From Ophelia neglecta (lineage: Eukaryota): a stretch of 64,000 nt of DNA. Position 1 is the first letter of the stretch. Each line of letters starts with the position of its first letter. Under the pieces are notes generated by a model, which had not been told where the DNA came from, did not search any database, and saw only the letters and a list, made by a program, of their open reading frames with translations. Where the stretch lies: the NCBI GenBank assembly GCA_965285935.1, contig OZ260662.1, positions 71,052,001-71,116,000 of the forward strand, in the 5' to 3' direction. Positions 9,301 through 17,748 of this stretch are shown here, in pieces. A program made the position numbers and the translations under genes.

Positions 9301-12300
9301 TGTAGGAGGAGAAGGCTTCACAGGTTACAGCGTTCAGTTCGGCTTTCTCCTTTTCTTCGTCGTTCAGCGTTTTGGCGTAGACCAGGGCGGCACAGTAGTC
9401 GCTGACACAACGCTGGTAATAGTGGCTGACGGCAACCTACGAAAACACACAGAGAGTAAGAAACAACACATCACTGTCTGACACAAGATATAGCACAGTG
9501 GTATAGCGGTCAATACGGCATTCGGTATTATCATATGACCAGAGCAATGGCAGTGCTACATTCGGTATTGGCCTACCATTCGGCGAGATCTCGGCAGAAA
9601 ATACCTAATACCGTATCGGCCGCTGCACAACAATGTAAAGGCCTAAAGACGTATCGGCGGGACAATGAGTCGGCTCATTCATCTGCCGTTGGAGTAAGAT
9701 ACTTACCTCGGAGTGGCACTCTGAGAAGGGCTCGGCTCTGAGGAGACTGCAGGCGTGTTTGGCCTGGGCCTCGCTGACAGCGTCCCTGCATTGGTATCCA
9801 CTGACGGAGGCATCGGGACACTGGATAACAAAACCGGTAAAAATCATAAGAACTGGAATCACAGACACTGAAAACAAGTTACACTTATAACGATGATGTA
9901 TGCGTTGTTATAGTCACACTTTATACAACCAGAGGTAGACACTATTCCTCGGTGAAATCGCGTGCTTACCGATCCAAAGGAGTCTGGCGTGGCAAATGAG
10001 TTTCCAAAAGCGGCTGGGTTGGACACCTTCTCACCACTGTATTTAGTCATATCGTCTGCAATGAAAATATTAATAGCGTTTCACCCCCACTAAAATAAAG
10101 GTTGTGGTTACAATACAGATGGCACTTCATACCATAACAATAGGTGAAGCTCATCAAGAGGTTATCAAAATAGTCTTATTTATGCGCTGTATAAAATAAA
10201 CCTACTGAGAGGATCGCCGTCAAAGTTTCCACAAAGGCCGACAATGTCAGTGTTTCCTTTCTGGAAGAGGTTATCTTCAATGGTGATAAACCACACGTCC
10301 TTTTCGTCCCAGCGCACGCGCAGACTGCCGTACTCTAGATAGTATTGCTCACCGCGCATTTCTAGGTGCACTCCTGTCCACATATATAAGAAAAGACACA
10401 TGTGATTAAGATGTTACAATATTTATTATTAAGTAACATTTTAAAAGCCTTCAAGTAATGCTTGAATAGAGGCTAGATAGACAAAAACACGGGGAATTCA
10501 TGTTTTGTATATATGTTTTCGATGCTACTTTTCATTTCACATTCCATTGCTCATTACAGTTGGGCGCAATAAAATAAACGAACTATTTTCAATGGCTATG
10601 ACAGAAGGCAAGTTTTAATAGCAAGGGAAGACGAAAACCATTAAAACGTTGTTGCAGGACTCATTGAGAACAAGAAATAAGAATGTGAATATCTAAGCTC
10701 AATGAGCTAGTCTGGGTCTACCGTTAGCGTAGCGTACGGTCAATGAACATAAAGCGGACAGCCGGGATTGTTCTAATATAAGTTGCGCCACAACCTAATT
10801 GACACGTGTACCAAATATCAAAGCCTTTTATGTTTAAGACAAAACCTTGCGCGGTATATCTTTTATGAAACTTCAAGGAATAGCATGCATGCGAAGGTTA
10901 AATTGTACTTTCAATACGTTAAAGATTTTATGGGAAGAGTTCTTTCGGGGCACCCTAGGTTCTGTACTTACCGCTGCTTGCCGATGCGTAACCTTTGCTA
11001 TCGGACACAGTCACGCTATCCCCGTTGACTTGAATGTTGCCACCAAGCGCGACTACTGTGTCCCTGGAGTTCAGCTTGATGGTCAGCTCCTACAATACAA
11101 TTGATTATTATCAAAAGCTTTAGTTTGATTCGCCATGTTTTAAGTTGTTCGCAGTTCGAGTAAAATATATTTGGAACTAATAAATAACCTGCTCTAATTA
11201 ATCATTGGCAAAATATAATATATAAGGGCATTTACTTTTCTACATTTCATGTAACTGTAGCAGTCGACCAAACGCACAACAACAGACTGCGAGAGATGGC
11301 TGTAGACAGTATAACTACATCGACCGGCAAACAGGTACTCAAGGCCGTCAAACGTCCGGTAATAATTGGGACCGTAGCTCATACAGGTCAGGAATGGCAA
11401 GTCGCCATTGTTCTTAACAACTGGAAGGAAATGAGACAACAAAGTTACCACAATTTATTTTCTCCTGGCTCCTGGGTATCTCAAGAACTTTCACATTCAT
11501 AAAGCGTTGAATACATATCAGTTGATCGTCAAAATTCCTGAAAGCCTTTGCAGTATACCAAAATAAGTGTGCAAGTGGGCAAAGTTTCCCGTCTGGCAGT
11601 GTAGATCAAGCCACTTACCACTGGGTCTATCCGGGGCAAAATCATTGACGTCTATCTCATCGCCGACCTCGGGGCATGGAGTACATTGTCCTTGTCCTGA
11701 GACACCCCAGCTTCTGGCCCCGGGTGAGCCACAACATTCGTCCAATGTCACTGGACCATCAACGCCATCCGGTTTACTCCCGAAACAGCCAGTCCGGGTG
11801 TAACAATAACGGTATGAGTCGGTGACACCTGAGGGGTACAAAAACAATGACATTATTTCGAGACAAGATTACAATGGAAAAGTTGTAGTTATATTCATGC
11901 TATGTGCATATATAATTATACTAGAAAAACTACACAGAATTTCGTGACGAATAGCACATTTAAAGCTCGTGCATTTCAGAAATTTAAATTCCTGTTAAAG
12001 GACGGATGAACTCTGTAGGCTAAGACAAAAACTTCTGTCAGCTATGTTGGTAGAAATCAAACCTTTAAATGGGGGCATTGTGCTTGCAAAATTGGAATGA
12101 TGTCGTTGTTTAAGGTAAGTACTACTCTCTCTGTATATATACATAGGCCTATACTACATAAAGCATATACCAGACTTTTCATTTTTATAGACTCTGAGGC
12201 ATGTTGTCGAATTTTATATTTGTTATTGATAATTGTACAGAAGCAGAAAATTGATGGTGCTGTTGACTTTAGAATAAATGCACTTACCGCTGAGTGAATC

Positions 12301-15300
12301 TTCGCAAGACCGTCCGACAAATCCACTTCGACACTTACACATTCCTGGTTCAATGCAGGTACCCCCGTTCTTACAGTCAGGTTTGCAGATTGCTGGAAAA
12401 GTAATTTGTCCAATATAACCTTCTACTTGTCGTAGTGTATACTTGAGAGTAGTATAATAAAATCTTCGTTTTCAAGGGGAGTTTAATTCCCAAACAGGAT
12501 GTTATAGGTTTGTGGAATACGTACGCTCGTCGCAGGAGTCGCCTTTCCAGCCTGCACAGCACTTTCGGACAGTTTGTGCAACATCCCTATATAATATGTG
12601 AAGGAAAATGATTAATACAATGTACGAAATCCAATTTATGGAAACAGCATCAGTTAATGGATGATGGCATTTTGACAATTATAGATACGAATAAGAAATA
12701 GAAAATCAGCAAATAGCAAAGATAATTAGACAGTAAACAGATAAAAACATAATTATTGTAAATCTAATGTTTGGAGAGACACGAGATTGCAATAGAATAG
12801 CATAGAAGCAAATTCAGCTTTCAATTTTATATATGTTTCTACCAAATCTCAAGTTTGGCGTATATAAATATATTAACTAAAATACGTACATTTTGAAAGT
12901 ACATTCGGGAGCATCCGGGTCATTTGCCCAGTTCCTCATCTGTTGTTGCAGTTGAGCGTCACTCCAGTCAGTCAATCCAGACATATTTCGGTCCAGCATC
13001 CAGCCATGGATGACATGGTCCATAAAACTGCCACATGAGTCCGTCAAGTAGTCAGGTCGGAATTCAGTTGTATCACAGAAATGTTCACTGTTATGAGAGA
13101 AGAATATGTGTGTTTCATATCTATTTAATTTAGGGGTTCATTTAGGAATTTAGGATAGTTTTGGGTTGAGCGGGAAGTGGGAAGATAGAGGCATTATTAA
13201 TATTAATGGTTTAAGCTACATATACATTCTAAGCGGTTTAGTGTCGTTCCAATAAGCATGCAATCATCGGAAAAAGTATTAGGGGAACAAATCTGGTTAT
13301 TTAATCTCCCTGGCAAATAACAATGTGACAAGAAAGAGAAACCAGGCAAAATTCTAAAGTAACATATTGTTTAAAACACAAATTCTACTTATTCATCCCT
13401 AACTATTGAGGGTATGTCATAAGATGATTTACATCGAGATTTAAATTTCCCGACAAGGGTATATTTCTTAATAGTAATTGGAAGTTCATTCCATTATTTG
13501 GCACCGAGAGCTAAAACTCTCGCTTGTCCTTGAGGGCCCTAGGCACCGTCACAATGTAGACAATGCTTGTTGCATGACCATGAGACACATTAGCTCCTTT
13601 CCTGTGTATGTTTAAAGCGTCCTATCTTAATTAGAAATTCAAGAGGGTCTATTTGAACGCTGGTAGGTAGAGTGAGTGGCTGAAGACTCCATTCTGAGAT
13701 AATTCATTGTCTGGATCCAGAACGATTTTCTAGCTGCCTTAAATATACAGGTTTGAAAAACGCTGGAAGTAGGGGCTTCATATCTCGACTTTATGACAGT
13801 GGGGCCTTAAACCTATTTGATCAGCAGGTAAAATTATGAAATGAGGCCGAGCATAGCTGTATAACCACATACTTCTCACAACACATTTAATTAGTAGTTT
13901 GCAGAGACTTCTTAATCAATACGGCACGTGCGCTTCCCGCTTGATGCACACAGCAGCTTAACTAATGGTGGCTTCATTGCTCTGACAACACGTGGTTAAA
14001 TTAAGTTACTGCTTCTAATTAATGAGGCAGCTAATTTATCTGGGGCGTCTTTCATAAAAGTCAGATAAATTCTTGCTAGCGTTCAATAGCTAAAAAAACA
14101 ATCTAGGTAACTTTTAACAAATTATTAGTCGGCTATCGTAAGCCAATTCTAAGGTATGGCTAGGCTAATTAATTGTAATTGGCAGGATTTGTTGCCCACG
14201 CTTAAGCTAGTAAAACTGCGCTTAAAATATATGTTTTTTTTTTATATATTATCTAAATCCTACAGATAGATACTGGCTTAAATCCTGGTCAGAGAAAACC
14301 TAAGGTGGCTAACTGGCCGGCTCGGATTTAAGCTAAACTTTACCATTCTGGGCTTGAACCTAAGATTTTTAAAACCGTCTAGCCCAGCAAATATAGCTTT
14401 AGCGCACTTCTAGCTGGTTAACCACTTATCTGACTTTATGACCCCCCCCCCCCCCCCTGGAGTTTCACACAGATACAAGCTACGGAAGTTTAATTGTGAG
14501 CAGGCTATCGTAAGCCAAATCTAAGGTAGCTATAGGCTATAGTATTGTTGAGATTAGCAGGATTTCATTGACCACAATTGAGCTATTCTATCATAAAAAT
14601 GTGTAAGATTTATGTTTCGTCCATTGTCGATGTCCTGTAGGTAGATACTGGCTCGAATCCTAGCTAGAGAAACCCTGAGGTGGCTTCCTGGCCGGCCAGG
14701 ATTTTAGCTTAAGCTTACACGTCTTGGGATTAGTTTATAGCCAGCTTAGTTTATTTTTGAAACCGTTTAGTCTAGTTTATATAGCTTTAGCTCACATATT
14801 TAGCTAGCTAACGTATAAGCAACCACTTATCCGAATTCTATGAAACAGGGGGGTCACAAAAGTCGGATAAGTGGCTTTGAAATTCTAGTATTTTCAGTCC
14901 GCCCTTCTAGAAATTCTAATTAGTGTACTCATCTGGAATCTGATCTCGATATCCTGGTTTATCATGTCCGCCGTTCCTAAAATACTGGCATTTTCCCAGA
15001 GTCTTATTACCCTAGTATATTGAGTCCGGGGGACTTAACAACCGTGGGACCAGGTAATCTTATATGTCCTGTCTCAATTTTTACTTATTCATAAGCATAC
15101 CATCAAAATTTTACTATTCACATCTATTCCTTATAATCCAGCTAGTGGTCTGTTTTTCCTGCTTCTTTAGGTCTATTGCAGGCCAGCCGACAAGCAATAT
15201 TAAATAAACTATCAGCAACCAATGGACGAAATTTATGGTGATTGTTCTAAGCGTTCTTACGATTGGTTCTGTGACTAATCGTAATTTGAAACACAGTCAC

Positions 15301-17748
15301 TGCGCTACAACAATCATCTTCGTGCTAAATTTACCTACATTCCGTCGGAACGGGCTATTTAATGTTATCTCCTATACTATACAGTTTGCTATATATGCCA
15401 AGTCAGAAGCTATACATCAAAAGAAATAATTATATTACTTTTTCAAACAATGTGCAATTCTTTACTTTCATGTGTGCGAAATCATCAGCTTTTGAAATTT
15501 TTCACCCTCACGTAGAGAGCGCGAGACCACTTCTTGTGCGGGCTAGTTGGGTGTCGTCGTTCGGTTCGAGAAAGTTTACCTTATAATTGGCGAATTTTAT
15601 GTTTGGCGTCGAGCATTATTATTTTGTACGTGCAACAATCTAAATCATTTCAAAAGAAAGTGGATTAGATTATCATTTGGCTGAGTACAAATCGGGAAAC
15701 CTTTCCGTCTCGCTAATAAGATGAATGTGAAGACTCGATCATATAGGTTATATATGTTTTGTGCAACTTTCGTGTCACATAATGCTGCGCTGTTAGCTTT
15801 TATTAGGACCTTCAAGTATGTCGTCGCTAGGTTTACAGATCTGCATTATGATTTACAGCCAAAAATACAGATTGGCGCTTTTAATAGGAAATGCTTACTA
15901 TGTATCTGTAGGTATAGTAACAGATAATAAGAATGTGTAAGCCATACAGGCCTTCATTAATAATTTTGTAAACTGTTCATGAAATAGTAATACACATGGT
16001 TATTTCAAACACTATATTGGTATCTGTATTTTGTTGTCTACTGTTGCTTGTACAGTTTTTAAAAAGTACGGCTTAAAGCGCGGGCTTGCACAATTATTAG
16101 CTTTAGATACTTAATCAGTCCTATTTCAGTCTCATCCTAACAGTAATAGGCCTAGTTACACATGATCTGTTCTATTTTCAAGCCGGTTTGCTATTTTCAG
16201 AGTCTCTTAAGAGGAAAATGTAATATTTTTGTAACCGTTTATTGGAAATATATACACGCCGACTAAAATGATACAGCTTATAGATATTTAGTCATGAAAA
16301 CGAGAATAGAGTTAATTATTTTAGACAGAGCGCAAATCTCAAACATCGGCAGCTGCGAGATGTGACTTATAGGCCTAATGCAATGGAAATTAATAAAGGT
16401 ATAGGCTTCGCGAAATGCTCACAAAGTGTACATTGAGTGGCTTAGTACTATAGTATTTTAAATTACATTCAAACCAAAACTGAGTTAGCCATTGCTTAAT
16501 TGAGGTAGAAGAATTAAATGTCTATGTTGGGAATTGCTGGCTAATATCTCGATAGAAAAGGCACCATCTGGCGAGTAAAAGAATAGCGACTAGAGAAAAA
16601 TAATAAAAGCATTTAATTATTAGTGCAAGAGTGGCCTCTGTGACATACTATAATCGACTAAGCGAATGCCCAATAAGCATGACGAAACAACGCAATTTCT
16701 AACACAACTAGTAATAGGCCTACATAGAAATAGTTCAGCTCCCAATGTGAAAAAAAAATCATTCAATGGATGCAGGCATGGGTTTTTTCATAATAAAAAG
16801 CTATAGAATGCCCAAGAAGTTGGGATGGCTTTATTTTTGATAACGGGCGAAGTGAGTTGAGTGCAATAGCGGGCTAAGCGACAATTCCAAGGCTTAATCA
16901 TATTAACAATAGGTTTAATGTTTTAATGTAAATCTATCAATTATCGATGGAAAGCGGCGGCAGGTGGCAATAATCGAGAACACATCTTTATACATCGGCC
17001 ATTTTCCTTGTGAAACAATACCTCCTTGCAACACATGCTGCCAAAGGTATAAGCCTATTAATGCAAGCAGTTCCAAACAGAGGTGTGCCTTATTAAAGCG
17101 ATGGTTATAAATGTACTTAATTTCACTAAATCAACCTAAAGCAGAAATGTAAAGAATGTTTCCAATTAAAACTAAATAATGTCATGCAGAATTATTCACA
17201 GCTTTCAAAGATGGATGAAATTTGCAAAGCTTAGCTTCTGTTATGTTGTTATGAATTCACCTGTCTCATTTTATAGAACAAAGTTAAACATAATTTTCTG
17301 ATAAGTGATGTACATTTTTTAATTACGTGAAACAATTAACGTGCCCTGTTCTTATTGGCGGTTTCTTTTTCACGAAGGCCAAAAGTGTGTCTTAATGGTA
17401 ATAATGATTTGAACCCAATTCAGCATAGTAAATCTCCATTACTACAAATACTCGCATGTCTAATAAACAAAATAGAGTATAACTTCGCAAAGTCAATGTC
17501 AGTTCAAATAAAAGATTACAGTCAAAAGGAGAAGTTTCATGGCGGGAGGGACGTGCGTCGCGCTTACAAATAGCTTGCCTCGTATTATTTATTAGCATAG
17601 TAAAAAAACAAACAATAGTGTATACAATAACGGGGTGAAATTAAACAATTACTTACTTCTCTTGGGCATTTGTCCAAAGAGTGGGTCCGGCTAACAGTAC
17701 TGTCGATAGGAGAAATACAAGAGTGGGGTCAAAGGAAAGCCCGCCCAT
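147..17748 (-). CDS. SSPO: SCO-spondin-like secreted VWD/C8/TIL/LDLa glycoprotein, 5' part (27 exons in window; continues beyond position 1)
   Basis: Manual splice of exons 17657-17748, 12890-13087, 12525-12586, 12288-12392, 11619-11828, 11236-11420, 10972-11089, 10206-10373, 9970-10055, 9707-9820, 9244-9436, 8583-8823, 8124-8265, 7473-7817, 7180-7341, 6515-6758, 5741-6002, 5409-5610, 5081-5172, 4507-4765, 3881-4013, 3309-3508, 2971-3104, 2083-2192, 848-997, 542-635, 147-313 (4468 nt). All introns are GT-AG with matching phases. Three D assemblies followed directly by LDLa is the SCO-spondin layout; VWF and gel-forming mucins have no LDLa there. A further acceptor (ttttttcag on minus) lies at positions 3-11. 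The symbol means '-like'; orthology was not tested. Confidence 0.88.
542..635 (-). CDS. Gene 1 exon 26: TIL3/E3 ([22 protein letters not shown]...ECQN)
   Basis: Phase 1-2; GTAAGC donor. Confidence 0.92.
848..997 (-). CDS. Gene 1 exon 25: TIL3 ([17 protein letters not shown]...EGCFCPEG)
   Basis: TIL pattern; phase 1-1. Confidence 0.93.
1847..1906. repeat. Two-copy roughly 31-bp tandem duplication (GATTGAA.GCGACAATG.TTGATAGT)
   Basis: Read directly. Confidence 0.8.
2083..2192 (-). CDS. Gene 1 exon 24: C8-3 second half ([37 protein letters not shown])
   Basis: GGDCxCxC D3 signature; phase 2-1; not in the ORF track. Confidence 0.93.
2971..3104 (-). CDS. Gene 1 exon 23: C8-3 first half ([13 protein letters not shown]...CLFDAC)
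   Basis: NPxRxxWA..C pattern; phase 0-2; not in the ORF track. Confidence 0.92.
3309..3508 (-). CDS. Gene 1 exon 22: end of VWD3 (GTRVYL...EGLCGDFNG...FGNRWK...C)
   Basis: GLCGDF and FGNxWK motifs; phase 1-0. Confidence 0.94.
3881..4013 (-). CDS. Gene 1 exon 21: VWD3 (…GLTVMWDQ)
   Basis: GLxVxWD motif; phase 0-1. Confidence 0.92.
4361..4399. repeat. (TG)13 microsatellite fused to a G14 tract
   Basis: Read directly; lies in an intron of gene 1. Confidence 0.95.
4507..4765 (-). CDS. Gene 1 exon 20: end of E', start of VWD3 ([14 protein letters not shown]...[14 protein letters not shown])
   Basis: Classic D3 motifs; phase 2-0. Confidence 0.94.
5081..5172 (-). CDS. Gene 1 exon 19: TIL'/E' ([30 protein letters not shown])
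   Basis: CPCxYNG motif; phase 0-2. Confidence 0.92.
5409..5610 (-). CDS. Gene 1 exon 18: end of E2 and TIL'
   Basis: [10 protein letters not shown]...KCPNNMVY...[10 protein letters not shown]; phase 2-0. Confidence 0.92.
5741..6002 (-). CDS. Gene 1 exon 17: TIL2 and start of E2
   Basis: GQVYSEC...[10 protein letters not shown]...CVPPAQCTC; phase 1-2. Confidence 0.92.
6515..6758 (-). CDS. Gene 1 exon 16: C8-2
   Basis: CEYDMC...[21 protein letters not shown]; phase 0-1. Confidence 0.92.
7180..7341 (-). CDS. Gene 1 exon 15: end of VWD2 ([15 protein letters not shown]...DPC)
   Basis: GMCGNYDG motif; phase 0-0. Confidence 0.92.
7473..7817 (-). CDS. Gene 1 exon 14: VWD2 body
   Basis: 115 open codons, [14 protein letters not shown]...[13 protein letters not shown]; phase 0-0. 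Confidence 0.92.
8124..8265 (-). CDS. Gene 1 exon 13: end of E1, start of VWD2
   Basis: [10 protein letters not shown]...[14 protein letters not shown]; phase 2-0. Confidence 0.93.
8583..8823 (-). CDS. Gene 1 exon 12: TIL1 and start of E1
   Basis: [18 protein letters not shown]...GCQCTPG...CPC; phase 1-2. Confidence 0.93.
9244..9436 (-). CDS. Gene 1 exon 11: C8-1 second half ([10 protein letters not shown]...[26 protein letters not shown])
   Basis: C8 WR...C motif; phase 0-1; not in the ORF track. Confidence 0.9.
9707..9820 (-). CDS. Gene 1 exon 10: C8-1 first half (CPDA...[16 protein letters not shown])
   Basis: C8 pattern; phase 0-0. Confidence 0.9.
9970..10055 (-). CDS. Gene 1 exon 9: end of VWD1 (NDMTKYSG...AFGNSF)
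   Basis: FGNS motif; phase 1-0. Confidence 0.9.
10206..10373 (-). CDS. Gene 1 exon 8: VWD1 (LRVRWD...[12 protein letters not shown])
   Basis: GLCGNFDG motif; phase 1-1. Confidence 0.92.
10972..11089 (-). CDS. Gene 1 exon 7: VWD1 ([23 protein letters not shown]...)
   Basis: tag acceptor, GTAAGT donor, phase 0-1. Confidence 0.88.
11236..11420 (-). CDS. Gene 1 exon 6: start of VWD1 ([26 protein letters not shown])
   Basis: VWD TFDG motif; phase 1-0. Confidence 0.92.
11619..11828 (-). CDS. Gene 1 exon 5: 6-Cys TB/follistatin-N-like module
   Basis: YCY...GCF...TLDECC...RSWG...QCTPCP; phase 1-1; within ORF 11518..11853. Confidence 0.88.
12288..12392 (-). CDS. Gene 1 exon 4: EGF-like domain ([30 protein letters not shown])
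   Basis: 6-Cys EGF pattern with CxNGGxC; phase 1-1; GTAAGT donor. Confidence 0.92.
12525..12586 (-). CDS. Gene 1 exon 3: [20 protein letters not shown] (CCxGW motif)
   Basis: tag acceptor, GTACGT donor, phase 2-1. Confidence 0.9.
12890..13087 (-). CDS. Gene 1 exon 2: N-terminal EMI-like segment ([13 protein letters not shown]...PECTFK)
   Basis: cag acceptor, open frame, GTACGT donor, phase 2-2. Confidence 0.85.
14042..14874. mobile_element. Two diverged tandem copies of a roughly 400-bp non-autonomous TIR element, plus a third TIR end, in intron 1 of gene 1
   Basis: Cores start GGCTATCGTAAGCCAA at 14131 and 14503 and share TAGATACTGGCT, AGAGAAA.CCT.AGGTGGCT and AACCACTTATC. Left end TTTCATAAAAGTCAGATAA is inverted against right end TTATCTGACTTTATGA. 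Confidence 0.7.
17657..17748 (-). CDS. Gene 1 exon 1: signal peptide [30 protein letters not shown]
   Basis: ATG at 17748, hydrophobic core, TNA-QE cleavage-like end, AA|GTAAGT donor (phase 2, matches exon 2). Not in the ORF track. Confidence 0.85.

Follow-up and report, generated by a model that had tools for sequence, protein, structure and literature searches.

A predicted EMI-EGF-short-TB head ahead of the first VWD domain in a SCO-spondin-like gene of Ophelia neglecta

The window examined here is a stretch of 64,000 nucleotides from Ophelia neglecta (GenBank assembly GCA_965285935.1, contig OZ260662.1, positions 71,052,001 to 71,116,000 of the forward strand). It holds the first exons of a gene for a giant secreted gel-forming protein, probably the spiralian orthologue of SCO-spondin (SSPO), with a head that was probably inherited from the bilaterian ancestor. 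This head consists of an EMI-type domain, an EGF module and a six-cysteine module of the TB family, followed by the first VWD domain (Table 1). All peptides quoted in the first-pass annotation of this DNA were recovered, encoded on the minus strand by sequence check. By predicted splicing, exons 1 to 6 join into a single open frame of 284 codons, with GT..AG ends on all five introns and a hydropathy peak of 2.8 over 9 residues in exon 1. Exon limits and introns also agree with the earlier statement that the EGF and six-cysteine modules each occupy their own phase 1-1 exon. Since single contigs in each of three DNA runs (one sample, perhaps from the source animal) cross exons 2-6, the order of these exons is no assembly join. 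Pfam EGF_2 matches exon 4 with 29.3 bits (cut-off 22.1), and Pfam VWD matches exon 6 with 26.4 bits.

The CCAGW motif of exon 3 is the tail of a six-cysteine domain that starts in exon 2. It had first been taken for a fibrillin-like head; the motif is indeed present, but instead of being a free-standing fibrillin-type motif it closes an EMI-type domain. Exon 2 can be aligned with SSPO N-termini from spiralians and fish. The Pfam EMI profile, proposed earlier as a check, gave no match on exons 2-3, nor does it match fish SSPO, with which the six EMI-type cysteines are in register. When modelled, the homologue from Lamellibrachia shows two helices enclosed by a long hairpin (residues 32-46 and 91-105), with predicted local distance difference test (pLDDT) values of 73-89. 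A profile of spiralian EMI domains gives 14.0 bits for Oryzias SSPO and 9.8 for the CCPGW exon of O. neglecta's own fibrillin, the best of 300 shuffles reaching 5.2. Exon 3 was rejected as a fibrillin N-terminal domain, which has four cysteines rather than six.

Exon 5 has the cysteine pattern C-x5-C-x16-CC-x7-W-x7-C-x2-C, and its assignment to the TB family is supported by several methods. Its Pfam TB match has an E of 0.0057, the 16.9 bits falling short of the cut-off (22.2), and a profile of the module family matches fibrillin TB6 (E 0.0018) and LTBP1 TB3 (E 0.092). In the AlphaFold2 model (pLDDT 79.9), one helix precedes the CC and the tryptophan is followed by a short hairpin; fold searches with this model returned TB-family matches, of which follistatin was the weakest, at a root-mean-square deviation (rmsd) of 5.9-6.0. 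The profile and fold checks suggested earlier bear out the TB part of the original proposal and leave follistatin-like ligand binding unsupported. Atlas feature searches with exon 5 gave TB clusters at 0.87 and 0.85, to be read as leads. A word-index search with exon 5 alone scored none of eight candidates, and searches of the PDB by phmmer and by a three-sequence profile yielded no TB match.

Canonical TB domains have eight cysteines with a CCC motif (PMC3306419). This motif occurs in none of the 31 complete modules compared; the C-x2-C spacing is found in 30, including that of the window, with x4 in one, and the tryptophan motif lies 5-11 residues before the penultimate cysteine in all 31. 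Conservation of at least 90% across 34 aligned modules is restricted to the cysteines, the tyrosine after the first cysteine, one glycine and the WG motif (seven of 40 matches, six of them longer proteins and one the spurious repeat P0029, are not in the alignment). Exon 5 contains no cysteines after the sixth, so the cysteine pair 7-8 of fibrillin hybrid domains is absent; although the CC is present, identity as a true hybrid domain was rejected for want of this EGF-derived pair. By alignment to TB6 and pattern count, the six cysteines fit the TB-core pairs 1-3, 2-6 and 4-7 without a tail. Homology with this core predicts disulfides 1-3, 2-5 and 4-6 in the module's own numbering, and the predicted fold is of the short-TB type, with two small sheets and one helix. 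The O. neglecta genome yielded one copy of the module; a Pfam TB scan of the genome turned up only nine fibrillin modules.

Table 1. Predicted exons and assemblies of the SSPO-like gene (positions within the window)
Feature	Position	Strand	Basis or remark
Exon 1 (30 codons, phase 2 at its end): start codon, hydrophobic signal peptide	17657..17748	-	Sequence, hydropathy, in-frame GT-AG join; predicted
Exon 2: first three cysteines of EMI-type domain with helical insert, phase 2-2	12890..13087	-	Alignment, homologue model
Exon 3: end of EMI-type domain (CCAGW motif, last cysteine), phase 2-1	12525..12586	-	Sequence, profile
Exon 4: non-calcium EGF module, phase 1-1	12288..12392	-	Pfam EGF_2
Exon 5: six-cysteine short-TB module and acidic linker, phase 1-1	11619..11828	-	Pfam, profile, AlphaFold2, fold searches
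Exon 6: start of VWD1, phase 1-0	11236..11420	-	Pfam VWD
Rest of D1 assembly (VWD1, C8, TIL; several exons)	8582..11089	-	Pfam C8 and TIL; tblastn collinear with three homologues
D2 assembly and following TIL/VWC-type exons	5083..8264	-	tblastn collinear with Watersipora, Mizuhopecten and Amia proteins; Pfam VWD
D3 assembly (VWD3, C8, TIL)	541..4761	-	tblastn, identity comparison
First LDLa exon	112..312	-	Gene continues ~160 kb past window start

The SCO-spondin-like body proposed in the first-pass annotation is upheld by collinearity, by a tree and by the C-terminal domains. For this gene, tblastn comparisons show collinearity with proteins from a bryozoan, a scallop and the bowfin across three VWD-C8-TIL assemblies and the LDLa repeats, and LDLa is a marker of SSPO (PMC4948705). 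Past the window start (below contig position 71,052,001) lie three more LDLa exons, making four found in the gene, then a repeat array and TSP1, TIL and cystine-knot exons; Pfam recognises TSP1 on two exons (a third is a partial candidate), TIL, and Cys_knot on two. The gene ends near contig position 70,891,700, for a total of ~178 kb. Its D3 assembly is 46-49% identical to those of Amia and Oryzias SSPO, and 34-39% identical to those of mucins and hemocytins, with the exception of one divergent row. In a tree built from 31 D3 rows (the window and 30 of about 125 long proteins), the window gene clusters with four spiralian proteins (95/98), adjoining three vertebrate SSPOs (100/99); the joint SSPO-like group is split from mucins and hemocytins with 91/85, in a tree that is unrooted and has long branches. 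The closest matches come from siboglinid annelids, with 62% over exon 6.

In mucins a 'CEW' cysteine follows the third C8 domain; it is absent in all SSPO-like proteins and hemocytins examined (window 2191-846 and homologues). This cysteine is one of the two D3 interchain cysteines. Because SSPO-like proteins are without it, their N-terminal linking may differ from that of MUC2 and VWF.

The same EMI-EGF-six-cysteine-VWD1 head is found in Ridgeia, Lamellibrachia, Mizuhopecten, Solemya (two proteins), Lineus and Watersipora, and the module invariably lies directly upstream of VWD1. The claim that the architecture is new therefore falls, as the head occurs in six named spiralian species and the Ridgeia record already has a precomputed Pfam TB match. 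These SSPO-like or mucin-like proteins (Lamellibrachia KAI0211395.1, Ridgeia KAK2174156.1, Mizuhopecten OWF45401.1, Lineus XP_064639835.1, Watersipora 'mucin-2-like', Solemya) have essentially the head of the window gene, followed by three VWD-C8-TIL assemblies, LDLa, and threonine-rich and beta-sandwich repeats; the window gene differs in its about 70 plus 11 near-identical repeat exons mid-gene. Invertebrate mucin-like proteins closest to SCO-spondin have been reported (PMC4948705), and limpet pedal mucus contains a SCO-spondin-like protein, P-vulgata_3 (PMC7333891). The window gene joins this known group, in which the head is routine; for the Ophelia genome alone, the head is likewise unremarkable.

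Further sequences delimit the distribution of the head. A relative carries it, from EMI to VWD1, in a frame of 348 residues that fills a 1182-base contig, leaving no room for introns, and a metagenome locus from another animal has a module exon with a phase-1 donor followed by a VWD1 exon. Applied to 125 proteins (119 among the matches listed, of 167 found, plus six), a relaxed cysteine pattern picked out nine SSPO-like heads and one unrelated C-terminal stretch, and no hemocytin or mucin N-terminus. A cnidarian VWD-LDLa protein (one sequence) has an EMI-type start and EGFs with no module before VWD1. The two Solemya velum proteins with the same head (P0040 and P0087) are different proteins, so the SSPO-like family can be duplicated. 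In another protein, P0018, EGF and module are separated by an additional insert that contains cysteine.

Three vertebrate SSPO records were examined (Amia calva, Oryzias and Lynx). In Amia SSPO the module is complete (residues 122-165) and lies immediately ahead of VWD1; its spacing is that of the window module (5-16-0-15-2), and the tryptophan is in register. Its score exceeds those of all 977 reported shuffles and 4466 control windows, and hhalign gives 71% with E 3.7e-5. Over the full-length Amia protein the bias-corrected module score is 6.5 bits, which may explain why the module has escaped annotation. In the Oryzias model the EMI tail runs, with no EGF, into the first two cysteines of the module and then jumps into VWD1; the Lynx model is without the head. 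That vertebrate SSPO has a short-TB domain is hence highly probable. The earlier statement that nothing of the EGF or TB type precedes VWD1 in vertebrates is correct for the EGF, absent in Oryzias, and mistaken for the TB domain, present in Amia. The domain list of one review names no TB domain for SCO-spondin (PMC8487547), and none was found named in the literature passages searched.

Of the two origins first offered, exon-shuffled or ancestral, the ancestral one is retained. A lineage-specific exon shuffle was rejected; the head is common to the six spiralian species and the module is found in bowfin SSPO. In the simplest history, EMI-EGF-short TB-VWD1 would have been present in the bilaterian ancestor, with loss of the EGF on the vertebrate line. 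Like the window gene, vertebrate SSPO combines an EMI-type domain, the six-cysteine module (Amia), D1-D3, LDLa, a TSP1/TIL tail and a cystine knot, and its D3 cysteine pattern is the same, again without the mucin-type 'CEW' cysteine. The differences are the missing EGF between EMI and module (Oryzias), the many thrombospondin repeats (TSRs) and about 13 LDLa, as opposed to two Pfam-confirmed TSRs and four LDLa exons in the window gene, and the lack of a large mucin array.

As a whole, the data are best explained, with a probability of about 65%, by an SSPO-type head that is as old as Bilateria and acts as an arm by which polymer chains dock non-covalently, and not as a growth-factor trap. D1-D3 and the cystine knot are the polymer machinery of VWF and mucins (PMC8487547); by analogy, D1-D3 and the C-terminal knot of the window gene would build a linear polymer. 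The EMI domain and short TB may protrude ahead of D1, and chain-to-chain contacts of this head could bundle polymers into a fibre or stiff mucus. Taken alone, this assembly role is somewhat favoured, by analogy with two systems. A five-residue insertion in the zebrafish EMI domain abolishes the Reissner fibre, while the protein is still detectable in secretory tissue (PMC6089837). In properdin, according to the literature on that system, the short TB binds TSR4 of the next protomer. There, however, the short TB is the first domain, before TSR1, whereas in the window gene it follows EMI-EGF and precedes VWD1; TSR binding is the property of the properdin domain and would be a conjecture here. 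TSR mannosylation has been reported as required for the Reissner fibre (PMC12063643). The far-reaching extension, that all bilaterian SSPO has a properdin-type short TB docking onto the neighbour's thrombospondin repeat and so, by contacts made laterally or head to tail, making Reissner fibre from mucin-like polymers, is improbable, the doubt lying in the docking.

The main rival, a possible if less probable one, is that the module is an intramolecular cap or spacer, which folds on VWD1 or holds EMI off D1 and makes no contact with other chains. Its constant position next to VWD1 fits this, as does the fact that the residues conserved in the 34 modules are core ones, with no obvious binding patch. 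Yet the module has been kept for >500 million years on a symmetric exon, although it could be dropped in frame and the adjoining EGF is absent from Oryzias SSPO. Packing on VWD1 is not visible in the model of the Lamellibrachia head (507 residues, predicted template modelling score 0.33), which is too poor at the TB-VWD1 junction (residues 199-257, pLDDT <50); a fold search with this model gave VWD/C8 matches only.

Derivation of the CCxGW-EGF-TB run by grafting of a fibrillin N-terminus is doubtful. As a recent, lineage-specific event it is excluded; as a pre-bilaterian event it would be compatible with the docking-arm explanation. The single fibrillin gene found in O. neglecta (G000:C8:51,917,000-51,973,000, L014-L029; nine TB/hybrid matches) has a CCPGW exon of phase 2-1, EGF exons of phase 1-1 and a first hybrid exon of phase 1-1, identical to the window head, but phase 1-1 is a general rule for extracellular modules. 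The module also resembles fibrillin and LTBP in its profile matches and in the CC of hybrids; it has no CCC, 5-8 disulfide, tail, EGF-derived hybrid tail, free cysteine or LTBP insertion. The nine cysteines and the EGF-derived tail of hybrid 1 are foreign to the module, whose profile does not prefer hybrid 1 (9.3 bits for that of O. neglecta, as against 17.8 for a plain TB domain). In an Atlas feature search with the Ridgeia head, the fibrillin N-terminal cluster is among the rows, all under the bar (0.77), but is outranked by the EMI-EGF proteins EGFL7/8. Further points against a graft are that the CCxGW here ends a six-cysteine domain, that the fibrillin N-terminus has three EGFs to the head's one, and that the cnidarian protein has EMI and EGFs without the module.

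Growth-factor binding by the module is unlikely. The idea that it captures BMP/TGF-beta like the follistatin N-terminal domain (ND) or LTBP TB3, so that the fibre or mucus would store growth factors, had been put forward in the first-pass annotation; it now appears very improbable, as both known ligand-binding features are missing. LTBP requires a two-residue insertion between TB cysteines 6 and 7 (PMC3306419), which the C-x2-C modules lack. Follistatin binds with an ND helix placed in the type I receptor site, and with FSD1-2 (PMC13590098). The module is predicted to share the six-cysteine TB fold of follistatin/FSTL3, and its equivalent of the helix-bearing stretch is the short interval of 5-11 residues, modelled as a hairpin. 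In follistatin, about 20 residues separate the tryptophan motif from the penultimate cysteine, and the ND helix is located in this stretch. A follistatin-like ligand trap was rejected on these grounds, there being neither a helix counterpart nor room for one; the high rmsd of the follistatin rows and the presence of VWD1 rather than follistatin domains after the module also speak against it.

The probability that exon 5 stays out of the mRNA, as a pseudo-exon or a cysteine pattern arisen by chance, is negligible: its Pfam score is sub-threshold and skipping it would preserve the reading frame, but the module is 52% identical to that of Ridgeia, has 39 genuine matches elsewhere and canonical splice sites, and is carried by a relative inside an intron-free frame.

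The straightness of the fish body axis is set by the Reissner fibre, whose assembly from SCO-spondin is an unresolved question (PMC8487547). A short TB beside the fibre-essential EMI offers a small, single-exon, in-frame-deletable element for addressing it. The TB family is extended beyond fibrillin, LTBP, follistatin and properdin, and in invertebrate genomes the head can serve as a signature that tells SSPO orthologues apart from hemocytins and mucins. The locus itself adds little; its by-product is an apparently unannotated domain in the Reissner-fibre protein.

In the middle of the gene (contig 70,951,000-71,038,000, L003-L012), 70 copies of an acidic exon of ~100 codons alternate with 73 short threonine-rich exons, with a period of 1257/1138 bases and a stop in three of the 70 acidic-exon frames. 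Eleven copies of a second exon type occur with long threonine-rich exons at contig 70,915,000-70,946,300, and repeats similar to those of the array are also present in the Lineus protein. The repeat exons may be degenerate discoidin domains; Pfam F5/8 matched none of the four repeat-exon types tested. The upstream neighbour (window 39235-33299, minus strand) comprises, by eye, a SUEL-type lectin, a CUB-like domain, a short cysteine module and a proline-rich tail. The downstream neighbour (contig 70,886,064-70,887,248) is an intron-poor, multi-pass membrane open reading frame that by eye resembles a ZIP zinc transporter.

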